A stretch of DNA of 64,000 bases from positions 23,045 to 87,044 of the forward strand of contig JAJZJL010000001.1 of NCBI GenBank assembly GCA_021810145.1, given 5' to 3'. The notes under the pieces were generated by a model. It was not told where the DNA came from. It did no database searches and was given only the letters and a program-made list of their open reading frames with translations. The stretch comes from Planctomycetota bacterium (lineage in GTDB: Bacteria > Planctomycetota > Phycisphaerae > WQYP01). The first letter of the stretch is position 1. The number at the start of each line of letters is the position of its first letter. Of the stretch, positions 5,617 through 11,694 are shown piece by piece. The position numbers and the translations under genes are program-made.

Positions 5617-6801
5617 TCAGGATGCATGCGTGGCCGCTGGTCCCAGAAAGGGTGTAAGCGGGGAAATATCGGGATGCGGGCGGGCACCTTGTTCAATAAG
5701 ATGTTCAACGGCAATTTTCGCCAGTGTCCGGGAAATGCGGTCCCACTGCGTTTTCGGATTATTCAAAAACCGATGATAATGCTGCAGCGACGCATAAAGT
5801 GTGCGATCACGCAAAATTCCCCACGGCAAGGCCGATCCGGCATCATGCAGTAATTTGGCCACAGCAAAATCCGCATGCGGGTTTACCGGCGCGGAAGCCA
5901 GAAGCTTTTGAATTTGCGCCGGTACGCTTTTCGGCCAGCGGCGGACAAGTTCCCGGCGCACCAGCGGCTCATTCTGAATAACCAGGGCATAGAGATAAAT
6001 CGGCGTTGCGGCGGAAACATCACCCTTGATAAGCAGATGATACTGCTGATCCAGATAATCCATCATCGCTACGCTCTGGCTGGTCAGAGCGCGGGTATTG
6101 CTGATCTGTGCCATCAGCACCGGATTGCGCCGCACGGGCAGTGTTTCTTCAATCACCAGCAGACGCACGGTGCGGGCGGCGGCGGCCACCTGGGCGCAGC
6201 GCAGAAGCCGGAGTGTCAGTTGCACATCGGCCCGTTCCGCCAGGGCGGCAAAGTGTTCGCGATCCTGGGGCGGGGTTGCCCCCAGATAAGCCAGAAGCTG
6301 GCTCATGGTCCAAATCGGGCCGAGTTCGACAATATTATCCGGTGAAGCCAGCGTCATATACTGGGCCAGCGCCCGCTGGGCCACCGGTGAACCGGCACGG
6401 GAGCGGTAGGTCAGGGCGAAGGCTTTAATATCCAGCAGGCGGGCAAGACCATGATGCGGGGTTTGTCTGGCCTTATCCAATAATACATTGGCCAGCGCGA
6501 TCTTATCGGAAAGCCGATGCCGCATGGCGGAAAGAATCTGCGGGGCGTATTTCTTTTCATAACGCCGCCAGTCATTGGCGGAATAAAGCGGCGGAAAGCG
6601 CCCGGGGGCGATCGATGGCACGCTCTGGTCGAGAGTTAGATCCGGCCACAGATTTGAAACGGGAATCGCCGGAGGCAATAGCGGATTATTCGCCAGCGAA
6701 TCACCGGAAGCGGGCATTGGAGCAGCGGCCGCAGAAACGGTTCCGGCCCAGCCGAGGCAGGCCAATATCACAAAAACGCCTACGCGAAAACAATATCTCA
6801 T
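5617..6801 (-). CDS. secreted hypothetical protein with signal peptide (MRYCFRVGVFVILACLGWAGTVSAAAAP); alternative upstream start at 6831
   Basis: Long ORF with hydrophobic N-terminal signal; no recognisable catalytic motif. Confidence 0.5.
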   Translation of the reverse strand: MRYCFRVGVFVILACLGWAGTVSAAAAPMPASGDSLANNPLLPPAIPVSNLWPDLTLDQSVPSIAPGRFPPLYSANDWRRYEKKYAPQILSAMRHRLSDKIALANVLLDKARQTPHHGLARLLDIKAFALTYRSRAGSPVAQRALAQYMTLASPDNIVELGPIWTMSQLLAYLGATPPQDREHFAALAERADVQLTLRLLRCAQVAAAARTVRLLVIEETLPVRRNPVLMAQISNTRALTSQSVAMMDYLDQQYHLLIKGDVSAATPIYLYALVIQNEPLVRRELVRRWPKSVPAQIQKLLASAPVNPHADFAVAKLLHDAGSALPWGILRDRTLYASLQHYHRFLNNPKTQWDRISRTLAKIAVEHLIEQGARPHPDISPLTPFLGPAATHAS

Positions 6802-6904
6802 AAAGTCCTGATATTCGCACCAGCCGGACAATTCCCTGTTATTATGCGATTGCCGCCACGGATAGCAAGCCGCGCGGAGAACGGGATGGTCAGTAGCGTC
6901 AATA

Positions 6905-6945
6905 TATTCAGTATTAGCAGTGTTAGCAGTATTATCAGTAGAGTC
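6905..6945. repeat. four or more copies of an imperfect 9-bp tandem repeat (cagtattag / cagtgttag / cagtattat / cagtagagt)
   Basis: Read directly from the sequence; lies in the divergent intergenic region between the secreted-protein gene and the small ORF/ART pair. Confidence 0.7.
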
Positions 6946-6984
6946 AGAGGCTGGGTTGAGACATGGATGTCGAAATCCCGATGG

Positions 6985-7037
6985 TTATGGGATCACGTGA
7001 TCGGGGAATCTGGAATACGGAATCTGGAATCTGGAAT
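6985..7037. repeat. palindrome TCCCGAT-N8-GATCACGTGATC-GGGGA followed by four copies of a 7-bp tandem repeat TGGAATC (one variant TGGAATAC)
   Basis: Read directly from the sequence at 6985-7037. Confidence 0.7.
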
Positions 7038-7098
7038 CGTGGTGCGCGGGCTTGGGCGCTGTATAATTCGCTTTGGAATTGTTATTCGGGAATGAGCC

Positions 7099-7251
7099 AT
7101 GACGGTTGATGAAATTGTTAAGCAGCACGTGAAAGCGTCGCAGAAGTATCGGAAGTCCATCAAGGGCTCGCCGGAGAAAGCCCGCAAATTTCTGATTAGC
7201 GCGGGCATTCTGGATAAAAACGGCAAACGACTGGCCAGGATTTACCGCTGA
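7099..7251 (+). CDS. small 50-aa protein (MTVDEIVKQHVKASQKYRKSIKGSPEKARKFLISAGILDKNGKRLARIYR), not in the supplied ORF track; candidate antitoxin or partner of the downstream ART
   Basis: ATG at 7099 preceded by an in-frame TGA; TGA stop at 7249-7251, only 3 nt before the ATG of the PARP-like gene (translational coupling); basic lysine-rich peptide. Confidence 0.4.
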   Translation: MTVDEIVKQHVKASQKYRKSIKGSPEKARKFLISAGILDKNGKRLARIYR

Positions 7252-7254
7252 ATC

Positions 7255-7845
7255 ATGCCGCCGACACTCCCCGCATTTGTTCTCGGTTACCACGGATGTG
7301 ATAAATCAGTGGCGGACGCCCTTCTTACTGGTGCAGCCAATCATCTACATTCAAGCCGCAACGAGTATGATTGGCTGGGCCACGGGATATATTTCTGGGA
7401 AGATAGTCCCCAGCGGGCGCTGGATTACGCCCGGCAGCAAATGTCGCGCGCGGGGAGCAAGTCTAATATCCGTGATCCTGCCGTCGTAGGAGCGGTAATC
7501 GATTTAGGGAATTGCCTAAATCTACTTGACGTACAATATATCCGGATTGTCCGCGCTGGCTTTATTGATCTACAAAGCTCGGTTCAAAACGCTGGCGGGG
7601 CCATGCCCGTTAACCGAACACCGGCGGGCAGCACTGAAAAATTACTCCGGGCCTTGGATTGTGCGGTCATTAACACCATTCATGCAAGGCGGGAGGAGGA
7701 CAAGCTTCAACCATTTGATTCCGTCCGCGCGGCGTTTATTGAGGGGAATCCGATCTACGAAGGCGGCGGCTTCTATGAAAAAACGCACATCCAAGTGTGC
7801 GTGCGCGACACTCAAAAGATCAGGGGCTATTTCCGGCCAATCTAG
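7255..7845 (+). CDS. PARP-like (diphtheria-toxin-type H-Y-[E] class) ADP-ribosyltransferase domain protein, 196 aa
   Basis: LGYHGCDKSVADALL...(33 aa)...GHGIYFWEDS aligns with the PARP/tankyrase HGS...GxGIYFA NAD-binding motifs at near-identical spacing; C-terminal FYEKTHIQVCV is a candidate third-motif strand. Confidence 0.55.
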   Translation: MPPTLPAFVLGYHGCDKSVADALLTGAANHLHSSRNEYDWLGHGIYFWEDSPQRALDYARQQMSRAGSKSNIRDPAVVGAVIDLGNCLNLLDVQYIRIVRAGFIDLQSSVQNAGGAMPVNRTPAGSTEKLLRALDCAVINTIHARREEDKLQPFDSVRAAFIEGNPIYEGGGFYEKTHIQVCVRDTQKIRGYFRPI

Positions 7846-8237
7846 GGTTCTCACTACTGCGTTCGGTACAACACGGGGGTGGCAAGCCATCTGGTTTACG
7901 CTTCCGAGAAAACTCGGGACAACGTAAACAATGCGTGACCCATCTCAAGTGAATCCGATCTGGTCGAAATCGCCAGAGCGACCCGTGTGTCGGCAGCACA
8001 TTCAGCAGTGGCAGGATTCTCAATCTATCGAGCACGCCCCGCGCGCCGGGATCTTGGGCGGTGGTGCGTGGCGCGATGCGCCGGAGCGATTGCGCAGCTA
8101 AACGCGTGCTGAGAGCTGCAGGTTGCTCGGTAACGAGAGCGCCTGGCAACGCGAGCATGGGGGCGCTCCTGGCCGACCGGTTCCATGCGGGAGCACCCGG
8201 TGAAATCGGCTTTCCGCCCCACCCCGCTTGTACCTTC

Positions 8238-8960
8238 TCAACGCTTGTGCTTGGCTATCGCGTCGTTGATCTTCAGCCAGAGGCCAGGATACTGCTCCAG
8301 ATTTTTCTCCGTTACATATTGGCTCCGCGGGGCATTCACAATCGGCGCGGGTTTTCTTCCCTTGGAGCCTTTTCCCGGCAGGCTCTTTAGCTCGGGCACC
8401 AACGATTGCCATTCCTCTCTTGATCGCAAAAGCAGCACAACGCAGTTCCTTTTGATTGCCTGCTCCACCAACCAGCCCGAGTAATCTTGCGAAGCGCAAA
8501 ACTTCTGGTCTGGATGCCCAGTGGACACGGCCGAGTGATACGGATGCCATTGGATGACGCAAACCGCTCTCGCCACGGCCTCGTTGCCGTGTTTTTCAGT
8601 TAAAGTCCTCAGCCGCCGGCTCCAATATTCTCCGCCGCAGGTTTTGCTGAACCGTGGATCAAGCAAATAAAATGGATACTTCGACGGCCGGTGCAACATG
8701 CTATCCTTGCAGGCTTTGCGGAATTTGTCGCTTTTGTAGTGAAACAGGTCGGGTTTCTGGAACCCGGGATTCAGGCTCAGAAGTATGACACTTGCGGTAA
8801 GCGGGTTTCCTACATACGGCACCGGCAAAATCTCATGGCGAATCGTTGAGGATTTTGCCCCACGCCGACGTAGCTTATCATTGAGCCTTTCAACAGCGTC
8901 CCAATCCTCTTTCAGCACGTACGGTTCTCTTGGGGGCAGGCCTTTCCAGGGATTATTCAT
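8238..8960 (-). CDS. hypothetical protein with uracil-DNA-glycosylase-superfamily-like motifs (MUG/SMUG-like VILLSLNPGF and WHPYHS); start taken at MNNPWKG
   Basis: ILPVPYVGNPLTASVILLSLNPGF resembles UDG motif 1 (hhhhG[IM]NPG) and VIQWHPYHSAV resembles motif 2 (HPSP); spacing about 100 aa. Confidence 0.4.
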   Translation of the reverse strand: MNNPWKGLPPREPYVLKEDWDAVERLNDKLRRRGAKSSTIRHEILPVPYVGNPLTASVILLSLNPGFQKPDLFHYKSDKFRKACKDSMLHRPSKYPFYLLDPRFSKTCGGEYWSRRLRTLTEKHGNEAVARAVCVIQWHPYHSAVSTGHPDQKFCASQDYSGWLVEQAIKRNCVVLLLRSREEWQSLVPELKSLPGKGSKGRKPAPIVNAPRSQYVTEKNLEQYPGLWLKINDAIAKHKR

Positions 8961-9046
8961 CGTTGGACTCCACAATCGTTTACCACATGACTTAAATAAA
9001 GTAGTGCAAGTCACTCTGGCAGTCAAATGATACGCGATCAGCTCGG

Positions 9047-9874
9047 TTGCAGCATTCGGCCTCGCGCGCGATGATCCAATTCATGGCAACACGTAAACAA
9101 TGGACACACGATGACCTGCTGGTGGCGTTCCGGCTTTATTGCCGCACGCCCTTCGGGCGGCTGCACCGGCTGAACCCGGAAATCATCAAACTCTCAGAGT
9201 TGATGGGACGCACACCATCGTCGGTGGGAATGAAGGCCTGTAATTTCGCCAGCCTGGACCCGGTTCAGCAAGCCCGGCAAATCAAGGGCCTCGGAAACGT
9301 CAGCCGTGATGACCGACAACTTTGGGAAGCATTTCAAGAAAATGCGGAAGCCACAGCCGCCGAAGCGGAAGCCGCCTATGCACGGCTCGTTGGGAACCAA
9401 ACGCCGCCCGCCGAAAATGAATTAGCTGCCGACGCCGAACTCGTGCCGCCAACCGGCCCGACGGAAGAATTGCGTACGGTTCGCGCCCGGCGCGTGCAGG
9501 GATTTTTCCGCGCGGCGGTACTGGCCAGCTATAATTTTCGATGTGCGATATCCGGAATCGCCCTTCCGGAACTACTCAATGCGAGTCACATCATACCTTG
9601 GCAGAAAGACACGAAACGCCGCGCTGATCCGCGCAACGGAATTGCCCTGAACGCCCTTTACGACCGGGCATTTGATCGCGGCTTAATTACATTCGATGAA
9701 TCGTTCCGGTTGGTTCTCTCCGCGCGGCTGAGGGCTAAGGCTAAAAGCCAGAGCGTGCCGGAGCAACTAAAACACTGGTTCTACACACTGGAGGGGACGA
9801 AGATAAATCTCCCCAGACGCTTCACCCCCGATCCAGACGCATTGGCATTTCACCGCGAGACAATTTTTCGTTGA
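9047..9874 (+). CDS. HNH endonuclease (PF13391/HNH_2-like, WTxxELLxAxxLY N-domain plus C-terminal HNH)
   Basis: WTHDDLLVAFRLYCRTPFGRLHRLNPEIIKLSELMGRTPSSVGMKACNFASLDP N-domain and FRCAISGI...NASHIIPW...NGIALNALYDRAFDRGLITF C-terminal nuclease motif. Confidence 0.7.
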   Translation: MQHSASRAMIQFMATRKQWTHDDLLVAFRLYCRTPFGRLHRLNPEIIKLSELMGRTPSSVGMKACNFASLDPVQQARQIKGLGNVSRDDRQLWEAFQENAEATAAEAEAAYARLVGNQTPPAENELAADAELVPPTGPTEELRTVRARRVQGFFRAAVLASYNFRCAISGIALPELLNASHIIPWQKDTKRRADPRNGIALNALYDRAFDRGLITFDESFRLVLSARLRAKAKSQSVPEQLKHWFYTLEGTKINLPRRFTPDPDALAFHRETIFR

Positions 9875-10073: not shown

Positions 10074-10628
10074 CTATGGCCCATCGGTCATTCCCGCGCC
10101 GCCGAGCTTTTCCTGAAATCCTTTTTTCGTCCACTCTTCCCGGTATTGTAGCGTGAATTTGCGCTGCAGTTTCCGCCCTGACCCTATCCGCTGAAGTATT
10201 TCCTCAAGTGAAATGCCCTGCTCCGCCCGGCTAAGATTTCCCAGAACACGGAATACGATTTTATCCGCGGAACAGATTTGGCACTCATCGGATTGTCGAA
10301 GCAGGTACGCCAGAGATTCCGTCTCGCCGGGGTCAAGTTTTTCAAAATATCCGGGTGAAAATCTGGCGCGAAGGCCGCTGATATCGGTTGGTGTAAGGCT
10401 GAACACGTTAATGGCACGGGATTCGGTGAACGCGGACAGATTAATGTCGTGGCGGTTGCCCTCGGCATCTTCGAAGAATTGGGCCTCATCAATGACCGTC
10501 TGCGCAAGGTGTATATCACATGCGGCAACGATGCGATCCCACAATCCATGGCGCGATATTTCGATTATGACATTGGCATCAAACAGAAGAAACCTGAACT
10601 TCTTCACCGTTCGGAACCTCCTGTTCAA
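10074..10628 (-). CDS. DUF4411/PIN-like nuclease-domain protein, partner of the upstream HTH-ImmA regulator
   Basis: FRFLLFDANVIIE acidic PIN-like N-terminus; overlaps the upstream ImmA-family gene by about 30-50 nt (co-operonic); DUF4411 is habitually linked to COG2856 proteins. Confidence 0.5.
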   Translation of the reverse strand: MNRRFRTVKKFRFLLFDANVIIEISRHGLWDRIVAACDIHLAQTVIDEAQFFEDAEGNRHDINLSAFTESRAINVFSLTPTDISGLRARFSPGYFEKLDPGETESLAYLLRQSDECQICSADKIVFRVLGNLSRAEQGISLEEILQRIGSGRKLQRKFTLQYREEWTKKGFQEKLGGAGMTDGP

Positions 10629-11694
10629 TGAAGCGCATGGCTTGCTGCCGTGAAATATTCAGATACTCCGCGAAGCGGCCGATCGCCATTTCGCCGCGGC
10701 GCATGGCCCTGACTGCCAGCGCACGGTAGCGTGCCGGCCACGGATGAAGGGGCTTGCGGTCCTCACGATCCTCAAGCAACGGCGACAGTGTTCTGGCCCT
10801 TTCGATATCCCGTCTGGTTTGATCGGCGCCGGCGTGCCCACGGCCGTACAAAATATGCATGCGCCACAGGACAGAATCCACTGATACGTCGAACTCGCGC
10901 GCAACGTCGTGTAACGACTCAATTGTTATTTTGTCACTATGTGTGCGGGCACTGATGGCGGAGCGGAATGGATCAGCGGGAAGCAAAAGGTTGGCCGCGA
11001 AGCATGTGGCCAACTTTTCCTCCCACTCGCGGGTAATTATTTGCTCCCCAGTGGTTGGATGAAATAGCTGCCAGGTCAGCAGATGAAACAGCTCATGCGC
11101 CAGATCATGGTTACGTCGCCATCGGGTATTTTGAGAATTCAGCAGAATGGCCGCACCAAGGGAATCCGTGACGGTCGCCGCCGCGGTACCGGAAGGTTCA
11201 AAACTCAGGTGAAAAATCTTCACCCCGCAGACTTCCTCAAGCGTAGCCAACAGGGACAGGCCGGGGCGGTCGCCCAGTTGCAATTCACAGCGAACGCGCT
11301 TGGCCAATTCTTCGGCTTGTGCGTACGAATAAGTTGCGGGATCGCCGGTGGCACAGGGCAGGCTGATTGGCGCAGATTCGTCACACCATATTTCGAGGTT
11401 ATGGTATTGCTCACAGAGGCGGAGGAATTGAACCTCAATTTCCGCCGCATTCTTCTCCGGCCGTTCGCGCCACAATACTGTTGGCTGGACTTCCAATGGG
11501 CCTTCAGTAAGAAAGAAAGCGACCGAGCGTTTGCAGGCGTCGGCCAATTTGCGCAATTGGCTCAGGCTCGGCTCCCGCTTTCCATTCTCAAATTCCGAAA
11601 GCGATGATTCACCAATACCGGTCCTTTCTCTAACCTGCGCCAGCGAAAGGTTGGCTCGTTGTCGTGCGTACTTAATACGGTCGTGAATTGCCAT
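10579..11694 (-). CDS. XRE-family HTH transcriptional regulator fused to an ImmA/IrrE (COG2856) zinc metallopeptidase domain
   Basis: N-terminal IKYARQRANLSLAQVRERTGIGESSLSEFENGKREPSLSQLRKLADAC helix-turn-helix; HDLAHELFHLL contains the HExxH zinc motif; FAANLLLP is the ImmA family C-motif. Confidence 0.8.
   Translation of the reverse strand: MAIHDRIKYARQRANLSLAQVRERTGIGESSLSEFENGKREPSLSQLRKLADACKRSVAFFLTEGPLEVQPTVLWRERPEKNAAEIEVQFLRLCEQYHNLEIWCDESAPISLPCATGDPATYSYAQAEELAKRVRCELQLGDRPGLSLLATLEEVCGVKIFHLSFEPSGTAAATVTDSLGAAILLNSQNTRWRRNHDLAHELFHLLTWQLFHPTTGEQIITREWEEKLATCFAANLLLPADPFRSAISARTHSDKITIESLHDVAREFDVSVDSVLWRMHILYGRGHAGADQTRRDIERARTLSPLLEDREDRKPLHPWPARYRALAVRAMRRGEMAIGRFAEYLNISRQQAMRFIEQEVPNGEEVQVSSV

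Follow-up and report, generated by a model that had tools for sequence, protein, structure and literature searches.

Here we examined a gene on the minus strand of a 64,000-nucleotide stretch of DNA from a Planctomycetota bacterium (GenBank assembly GCA_021810145.1, contig JAJZJL010000001.1, positions 23,045 to 87,044), referred to below as the window. The gene occupies 8238..8960 of the window, stop codon included, and encodes a 240-amino-acid Brig1-like glycosylase of the uracil-DNA glycosylase (UDG) superfamily. Judged by sequence comparison, the protein is a homologue of the anti-phage glycosylase Brig1 that belongs to a much larger, unnamed sister family, and it is not a Brig1 equivalog. 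We regard the Brig1 homology and the UDG fold as nearly certain. Catalytic activity is predicted and appears likely, and a role in defence is predicted with somewhat less confidence. The reading we favour, at slightly better than even confidence, is a stand-alone, monofunctional Brig-type glycosylase predicted to excise a modified pyrimidine from invading DNA.

The first account of defence by base excision appeared in 2024 and concerned Brig1, which excises alpha-glucosyl-5-hydroxymethylcytosine (alpha-glucosyl-5hmC) and protects against T-even phages. The characterised enzymes of this kind are few, and one substrate is known for each. If members of the sister family are active, they would add to the phage DNA modifications known to be open to bacterial attack, improve the annotation of defence islands, and supply reagents for mapping modified bases. 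An earlier note, made from the letters of the window alone, had proposed a modified-base defence glycosylase with two UDG-like motifs and an HNH nuclease as its partner. Homology to Brig1, the UDG fold and the first motif support this proposal, while the second motif and the HNH partnership did not hold up.

Homology to Brig1 and size of the family

The NCBIfam library returned a single match for the window protein, the equivalog model of anti-phage glycosylase Brig1 (NF047634; E = 3.3e-10, 39.8 bits, residues 33-149), so the protein is not "otherwise unrecognisable", as it had been called in the earlier note. The same model is matched by 117 of the 122 representative sequences in our family alignment (A2), with a top E of 8.5e-16. 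For a direct comparison, the Brig1 sequence was taken from the supplement of PMC11078745, and 52 homologues were collected, 37 of which were aligned (A4). Comparison of A2 with A4 using hhalign gave a probability of 97.5% (E = 6e-12) over 111 columns, pairing residues 35-150 of the window protein with Brig1 residues 39-158. Against Brig1 alone the probability was 88.9%, and BLASTP against Brig1 returned short segments only (17/53 residues identical, E = 0.007). The window protein had no match in Pfam (E up to 0.1), PADLOC 2023 or PHROGs, and neither a Pfam UDG model nor an NCBIfam repair-glycosylase model matched it. Searches of PDB sequences with the single protein, with a 6-sequence profile, and with the 122-sequence profile returned nothing or junk. 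Because homology is supported in the N-terminal part, yet the score lies below the cut-off of the Brig1 model and the C-terminal third is unaligned, we place the protein as a homologue rather than an equivalog.

A word-indexed search had found six relatives. An exhaustive profile search yielded 3,005 clusters (50% identity) at E <= 1e-3 and 740 at E <= 1e-30, most of them stand-alone proteins of about 220 amino acids. This makes the sister family about fifty times larger than the Brig1 family (approximately 3,005 clusters against approximately 50). It has no name in Pfam or PADLOC, and RefSeq labels its members "hypothetical protein". The window protein and Brig1 are homologous over about 111 columns, comparable in length (240 and 261 amino acids), and each a single-gene unit. 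They have in common the elements PEPF/PDPW-xG, LNPG, Y/W-W, and E/Q-x-[YFH]-P-[YW]-H-S. They differ at the essential E147 of Brig1, whose place is taken by Q137 in the window protein, and in family size, with about 3,005 clusters against the 42 Brig1 homologues of the original paper or the 52 of our own search. Fusions to DUF4268 (PF14088) occur in both families, as in P0108 (419 amino acids) of the sister family and P0187 (435 amino acids) of the Brig1 family. A further relative, P0019, carries an N-terminal DUF6508.

Predicted fold

An AlphaFold2 model built from the 122-sequence alignment reached a predicted local distance difference test score (pLDDT) of 96.3 and a predicted template-modelling score (pTM) of 0.92, and replaced an earlier model from 6 sequences with a pLDDT of 79.9. 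In a Foldseek search of the PDB, the top 43 matches were all members of the UDG superfamily (TDG, family-4 UDG, UdgX and BdiUNG), and the best was TDG 5cys_A at a probability of 0.99 and an E of 3.3e-3. Phage UDGs likewise ranked top in a library of viral structures. In the model, strand beta-1 spans residues 58-62, beta-2 133-137, and beta-3 174-177, followed by short strands at approximately 194-207, and a helical insertion of about 70 residues separates beta-1 from beta-2. The structure prediction and Foldseek comparison, which the earlier note had named as its check, thus returned a UDG-type fold with the motif 1 loop following beta-1, and neither an unrelated fold nor a loss of that loop geometry was found. 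Together with Brig1 as the sole family match and the hhalign probability of 97.5%, the UDG-only matches bear out the description of the protein as UDG-superfamily-like. The match scores are weak, but the fold class is well supported, and the branch is a highly diverged one.

Among the established families, UDG family 2 (E. coli MUG and human TDG) and SMUG1 come closest. They resemble the window protein in providing the best structural match, in an x-x-N-P-G loop after beta-1, in a catalytic Asn, and in being monofunctional. However, there is no significant sequence similarity to MUG/TDG, the PYHS and PFYLLDP signatures are missing from them, the window protein has its helical insertion, and the N-P-S-G-L-S/HPSP motif B is not recognisably conserved in it. 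UDG family 4, UdgX and BdiUNG recur among the fold matches (1l9g, 1ui0, 4zby, 6l5a and 5gn2), with E of 7e-3 or worse. Unlike these enzymes, the window protein lacks the usual Fe-S cysteine pattern and the GE(A/G)PG and HPS motifs.

Active-site elements

The sequence VILLSLNPGF (residues 58-67; 8760..8789, minus strand) comprises strand beta-1 and the LNPG loop, with L63-N64-P65-G66-F67 directly after the strand in the model. This is the UDG motif A position, where the GINPG of MUG/TDG and the GMNPG of SMUG1 sit, and the earlier assignment of this stretch as motif 1 therefore stands. The loop aligns with LGLNPGI of Brig1, pairing N64 with Brig1 N72, and hhalign against E. coli MUG pairs the LNPG segment with VVFCGINPGLS, a pairing that is not significant (2.5% probability, 20 columns). 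N64 is present in 118 of the 122 aligned sequences, P65 in all, G66 in 115, and an aromatic residue at position 67 in 110. We predict from this sequence pattern that N64 is the catalytic or water-positioning Asn.

The second stretch, WHPYHS (residues 138-143; window 8532-8549, minus strand), had been likened to the HPSP motif 2 of UDGs. It instead follows beta-2 as part of VCVIQWHPYHS (residues 133-143; 8532..8564, minus strand), and aligns with Brig1 E147-L-Y-P-W-H-S rather than falling in the loop after beta-4. Based on its position after beta-2 and its alignment to Brig1 N145-F-E147-L-Y-P-W-H-S, we read this stretch as the base-recognition segment. Such a segment is the equivalent of the one containing N204 in UNG. 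The Brig1 authors equate it with N82 of S. tokodaii UDG. VCVIQWHPYHS aligns as a whole with ILNFELYPWHS of Brig1, with V135 at the place of N145, Q137 at that of E147, and PYHS at that of PWHS. P140 occurs in 105 of the 122 sequences, Y141 in 121, H142 in 100, and S143 in 116, so that PYHS is a signature of the family as aligned. Although the second motif is of a different kind than supposed, both are real family hallmarks conserved across the alignment and not chance resemblances.

Between these two elements lies Y112-W113 (8622..8627, minus strand), a predicted base-stacking aromatic pair that aligns with Y121-W122 of Brig1. Position 112 is W, Y or F in 120 of the 122 sequences, and W113 is present in 116. 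In Brig1, Y121A impairs immunity, E147A and E147Q lose immunity, and N145 is dispensable; W122 contacts the flipped base, as does W100 in the related enzyme Brig3. Activity of Brig3 is lost in N50A, W100A and D127A/N, and N50A abolishes defence.

After the last core strand comes a loop, VNAPRSQYVTEKN (residues 208-220; 8301..8339, minus strand), located by the order of secondary structure in the model. Its family consensus is L-[NKR]-[SN]-P-[QR]-N, N220 is present in 121 of 122 sequences, and there is no clear sequence match to the HPSP/NPSGLS motif B. We infer from secondary-structure order in the model, and not from superposition, that in topology this loop corresponds to UDG motif B. Immediately ahead of the last core strand, the window protein has a Gly/Lys-rich insertion, PGKGSKGRKPAP (residues 195-206; 8343..8378, minus strand), defined by the alignment and the model. 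All 12 of its columns are filled in one of the 122 aligned sequences, it is missing from the relatives P0002 and P0003, and model confidence is lowest there (block pLDDT 75). The insertion, complete only in the window lineage, could provide extra DNA contacts.

We also set the window family beside Brig2 and Brig3, by their published descriptions only. Brig3, a 5hmC glycosylase encoded in an operon with BapA, is described as a UDG-superfamily homologue of Brig1 (bioRxiv 10.64898/2026.02.25.707755). Candidate counterparts of its catalytic Asn N50 (in an N-P-x loop), stacking Trp W100, strand-terminal acid D127 and inserting Asn N225 are N64, W113, Q137 and N220, respectively. The motifs differ, being NPS and H-x-D in Brig3 and NPG and [CV]-x-E/Q in the window family, and no BapA-like gene adjoins the window glycosylase. 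As Brig3 does, some members of the window family adjoin ASCH or ADP-ribosylglycohydrolase genes. Brig2 is, like the window protein, a UDG-fold, single-gene defence glycosylase (bioRxiv 10.1101/2025.10.29.685425). It is at most 20% identical to Brig1, has hundreds of homologues, and is active against phages with hypermodified thymidine.

Positions 137 and 212 and the target base

Position 137 is E in 107 of the 122 sequences, Q in 13, and D and N in one each. The window protein is of the Q type, with Q137 in the place of Brig1 E147 and Brig3 D127. Twelve of the 13 Q137-type sequences also carry R212, compared to 25 of 109 of the E137 type (Fisher p = 1.5e-6, phylogeny ignored), and E137 is mostly paired with Q212. 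Pairwise identity among the 13 Q-type sequences is only 31-44%. Since Q137 recurs in such divergent members and co-varies with R212, the pair suggests a pocket reshaped for another substrate, and not one in decay. The replacement of the family-typical E137 and Q212 by Q137 and R212 also means that the target base is probably not the alpha-glucosyl-5hmC of Brig1. UDGs that read uracil or thymine use an amide at the position equivalent to 137. By this analogy, our leading guess for the target is a 5-substituted uracil- or thymine-type base, and the thymidine-type targets of Brig2 would fit an amide at 137, again by description only.

The same substitution could instead signify a catalytically dead, base-flipping sensor, in which Q137 has replaced the essential acid and the protein binds modified bases, blocking replication sterically or recruiting an effector. 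The published mutants give this some footing. E147Q impairs Brig1. In Brig3, D127N, though inactive, still binds and flips the base, and crystal structures show this mutant trapping flipped 5hmC (bioRxiv 10.64898/2026.02.25.707755). A precedent is set by the END nucleases, in which an inactivated glycosylase domain serves as the sensor, and a possible effector, the HNH nuclease, is encoded next door. However, all other active-site elements are kept (N64, Y112/W113 and PYHS), Q137 recurs in the 13 divergent members with R212 co-varying, and Q137 is retained in P0002, whose HNH neighbour is truncated. We consider a dead sensor very improbable for the window protein.

A bolder extension of the remodelled pocket, which we put forward as a speculation that is rather doubtful, is that the Q137/R212 members form a functionally distinct branch, with the swap re-tuning the pocket from a cytosine-type base to a hypermodified thymine or uracil or to a negatively charged adduct. 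In a more radical version, the Q-type proteins may be non-catalytic sensors. If the branch is real, the Brig-like family would be a set of modular modified-base readers for many phage DNA chemistries against which hosts have no known defence. The co-varying residues 137 and 212, set against a conserved core, offer a concrete and testable handle on substrate specificity.

Distribution and neighbourhoods of the family

Relatives of the window gene are found in metagenome-assembled genomes (MAGs) from four phyla (Chloroflexia, Pirellulales, Thermoanaerobaculia and Armatimonadota), and in soil and sediment metagenomes. They also occur on plasmids of Streptomyces, Rhizobium and Variovorax, annotated as hypothetical proteins, and on two unannotated "Bacteriophage sp." contigs. 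The homologues on Streptomyces rochei and Rhizobium phaseoli plasmids are missing from the 42 Brig1 homologues of Hossain et al. The window protein itself recurs in identical form on 24 contigs that we read, all of one lineage and with the same surroundings. Overall, the gene is an accessory one with a patchy distribution.

Loci were collected with a narrow alignment, which gave 4 genome loci, and with a motif-homogeneous subset, which gave 80 metagenome loci. A Pfam scan of 76 immediate neighbours from approximately 70 of these 80 found no family more than twice and no dominant partner. ADP-ribosylglycohydrolase, ASCH and inositol monophosphatase each occurred twice, and Mrr, HNH, DNA methylase, PIN and resolvase once each. 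This pattern is the loose association seen in defence islands, with no obligate pairing.

Several individual loci are arranged more tightly. In L056 (3572-3949, plus strand), and likewise in L051, an ASCH-domain gene precedes the glycosylase homologue by 58 bp. Same-strand HNH nucleases lie 61-64 bp from the homologue in L035 (4781-5791, plus strand) and L020 (1218-2120, plus strand), and a PD-(D/E)XK nuclease lies 19 bp upstream of it in L019 (3-1109, plus strand). These five loci hold apparent two-gene units. In L009, from a Chloroflexia MAG, the homologue shares an open reading frame (ORF; 7212-8588, plus strand) with an upstream RadC-like JAB domain, the two being fused or separate, and an RNase H gene follows (8764-9405, plus strand). 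ADP-ribosyl glycohydrolase genes lie beside both Brig1 and Brig3, and Brig3 also adjoins an ASCH-like gene. The ASCH and ADP-ribosylglycohydrolase neighbours of the window family mirror the Brig3-BapA-ORF3 operon.

Proposed mechanism and the case for repair

In the mechanism we propose, the enzyme would scan DNA and flip a modified pyrimidine of invading phage DNA into its pocket. Y112 and W113 would stack on the flipped base, residue 137 would read its Watson-Crick edge, and N64 of the LNPG loop would position the attacking water, as do N18 of MUG, N140 of TDG, and N50 of Brig3. The loop at 208-220, through R212 and N220, would plug the space vacated in the helix. Once the N-glycosidic bond is hydrolysed, abasic sites would remain and block phage replication with no dedicated nuclease, as for Brig1.

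Several observations weigh against this reading. The score of 39.8 bits lies far under the curated cut-off of 230 bits for the Brig1 model, the C-terminal third cannot be aligned with Brig1 when A2 and A4 are compared by hhalign, and PADLOC 2023 has no model that matches the glycosylase. No Foldseek match has an E below 1e-3, and TM-scores are 0.3-0.45. Many genomic contexts are ordinary, with genes for aspartate carbamoyltransferase, inositol monophosphatase, an epimerase and transporters. Lastly, Q137 stands at the position of an essential acid, and by analogy to the impaired E147Q of Brig1 and the inactive D127N of Brig3, the protein could be inactive on cytosine-type bases.

Some of these same observations would suit a housekeeping enzyme of base excision repair, that is, a novel UDG family acting on uracil or on mismatched or damaged pyrimidines of the cell's own DNA, and present in this island by accident. 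The UDG fold and the MUG/TDG-like NPG loop are as expected for such an enzyme, the amide of Q137 is found in uracil-reading UDGs (N204 of UNG), many relatives sit among ordinary metabolic genes, and the family is large at approximately 3,005 clusters. Brig1 too excises uracil, weakly and at high concentration. Conversely, the only relatives detectable by sequence are the Brig defence enzymes, no Pfam UDG or NCBIfam repair-glycosylase model matches, the distribution is patchy and plasmid-borne without synteny, and repair genes do not recur beside its members. We consider housekeeping repair unlikely and favour the defence glycosylase.

The HNH nuclease next door

Divergent from the glycosylase gene is a gene for an HNH_2 endonuclease of 267 amino acids (9071..9874, plus strand; Pfam HNH_2, 1.2e-13; PADLOC HNH model PDLC04132, 1.2e-88). 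The C-terminal part alone matches an NCBIfam model of a PT-DNA restriction endonuclease, and the HNH domain alone matches PDB entry 6yex, which we take to be the modification-dependent EVE-HNH enzyme VcaM4I. The N-terminal domain of approximately 140 amino acids is of no recognised type. We conclude that this is probably an independent, modification-dependent restriction-type gene.

The earlier note had seen in this nuclease a natural partner for the glycosylase. As a two-gene module, the glycosylase would make abasic sites in modified DNA and the divergent HNH enzyme would cleave at or near them. The two genes lie 110 bp apart, and the same divergent junction is present in L013, the locus of the closest relative (62% identity). 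Nucleases also adjoin some other members of the family, including the HNH enzymes of L020 and L035, the PD-(D/E)XK enzyme of L019, one Mrr_cat protein, and the DUF4268 fusions. In L013, however, the HNH protein is reduced to residues 1-77 and has lost its nuclease domain while the glycosylase is intact. Its remnant is a 143-amino-acid ORF (6399-6830, minus strand) with no Pfam domain, and fragments resembling the HNH C-terminus lie 3.6 kb off, beyond a Schlafen-group-3-like helicase gene, which suggests an insertion or rearrangement within the HNH gene. L014, the locus of the next-closest relative (52% identity), has no HNH gene. Elsewhere HNH accounts for 1 of the 76 immediate neighbours and for 2 of approximately 90 other family contexts, and the HNH proteins found come from different Pfam families. 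The window HNH enzyme, with its own N-terminal domain, resembles self-sufficient type IV enzymes, and Brig1 needs no nuclease, not even the host AP endonucleases. With no conserved co-occurrence with one nuclease family, we rejected HNH as an obligate partner and consider the two-gene module improbable.

Start site and surrounding island

The glycosylase ORF begins with an ATG at 8960 and ends with a stop codon at 8238-8240, on the minus strand. A Shine-Dalgarno sequence GGAG (8968..8971, minus strand), read from the sequence, lies 7 nt 5' of this ATG. The start region is the same as that of the orthologous locus L013, with identical ribosome-binding site and start, GGAGTCCAACGATG. The ATG at 8960 is taken as the start on the basis of this match and of the homologues, which begin at MNNPW; a longer, mechanically called ORF reaching a TTG at 9026 was rejected. 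We looked for a sigma-70-like promoter and found none.

The accessory stretch that holds the gene measures approximately 6.4 kb and is bounded by an amidohydrolase/nuoC/pheT block on one side and an RND efflux operon on the other. Neither a tRNA nor flanking repeats mark it off, and its GC content is the same as that of its surroundings. The glycosylase shares this stretch with the HNH_2 nuclease, an HTH-M78 pair, and a PHROG/PD-T4-9_A-like gene, in agreement with the defence context that the earlier note had assigned. At one edge is a 404-amino-acid protein (5617-6831, minus strand) with a hydrophobic N-terminus, by eye resembling a signal peptide or membrane anchor, and no significant family match. 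A three-gene mini-operon of 69, 50 and 196 amino acids (6886-7095, 7099-7251 and 7255-7845, plus strand) converges on the glycosylase. The 196-amino-acid protein matches PHROG 14664 (E = 5.5e-24, no function assigned) and, weakly, PADLOC PD-T4-9_A, and has no match in Pfam or among PDB sequences. It is kept in L013 together with the 50-amino-acid protein (68% and 74% identity, respectively), approximately 6 kb from the glycosylase of that locus.

On the other side of the HNH gene, the pair consists of a helix-turn-helix (HTH) and Peptidase_M78 (ImmA/IrrE-like) protein (10579-11694, minus strand) and a 177-amino-acid protein encoded downstream with a 29-nt overlap (10074-10607, minus strand). 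The 177-amino-acid protein matched nothing in the family libraries or PDB sequences searched. The HTH-M78 protein matches PADLOC RmrA models at 4e-28 and the NCBIfam spr1629 repressor/antitoxin model, and the two genes appear to be arranged as a toxin-antitoxin or regulator-effector pair.

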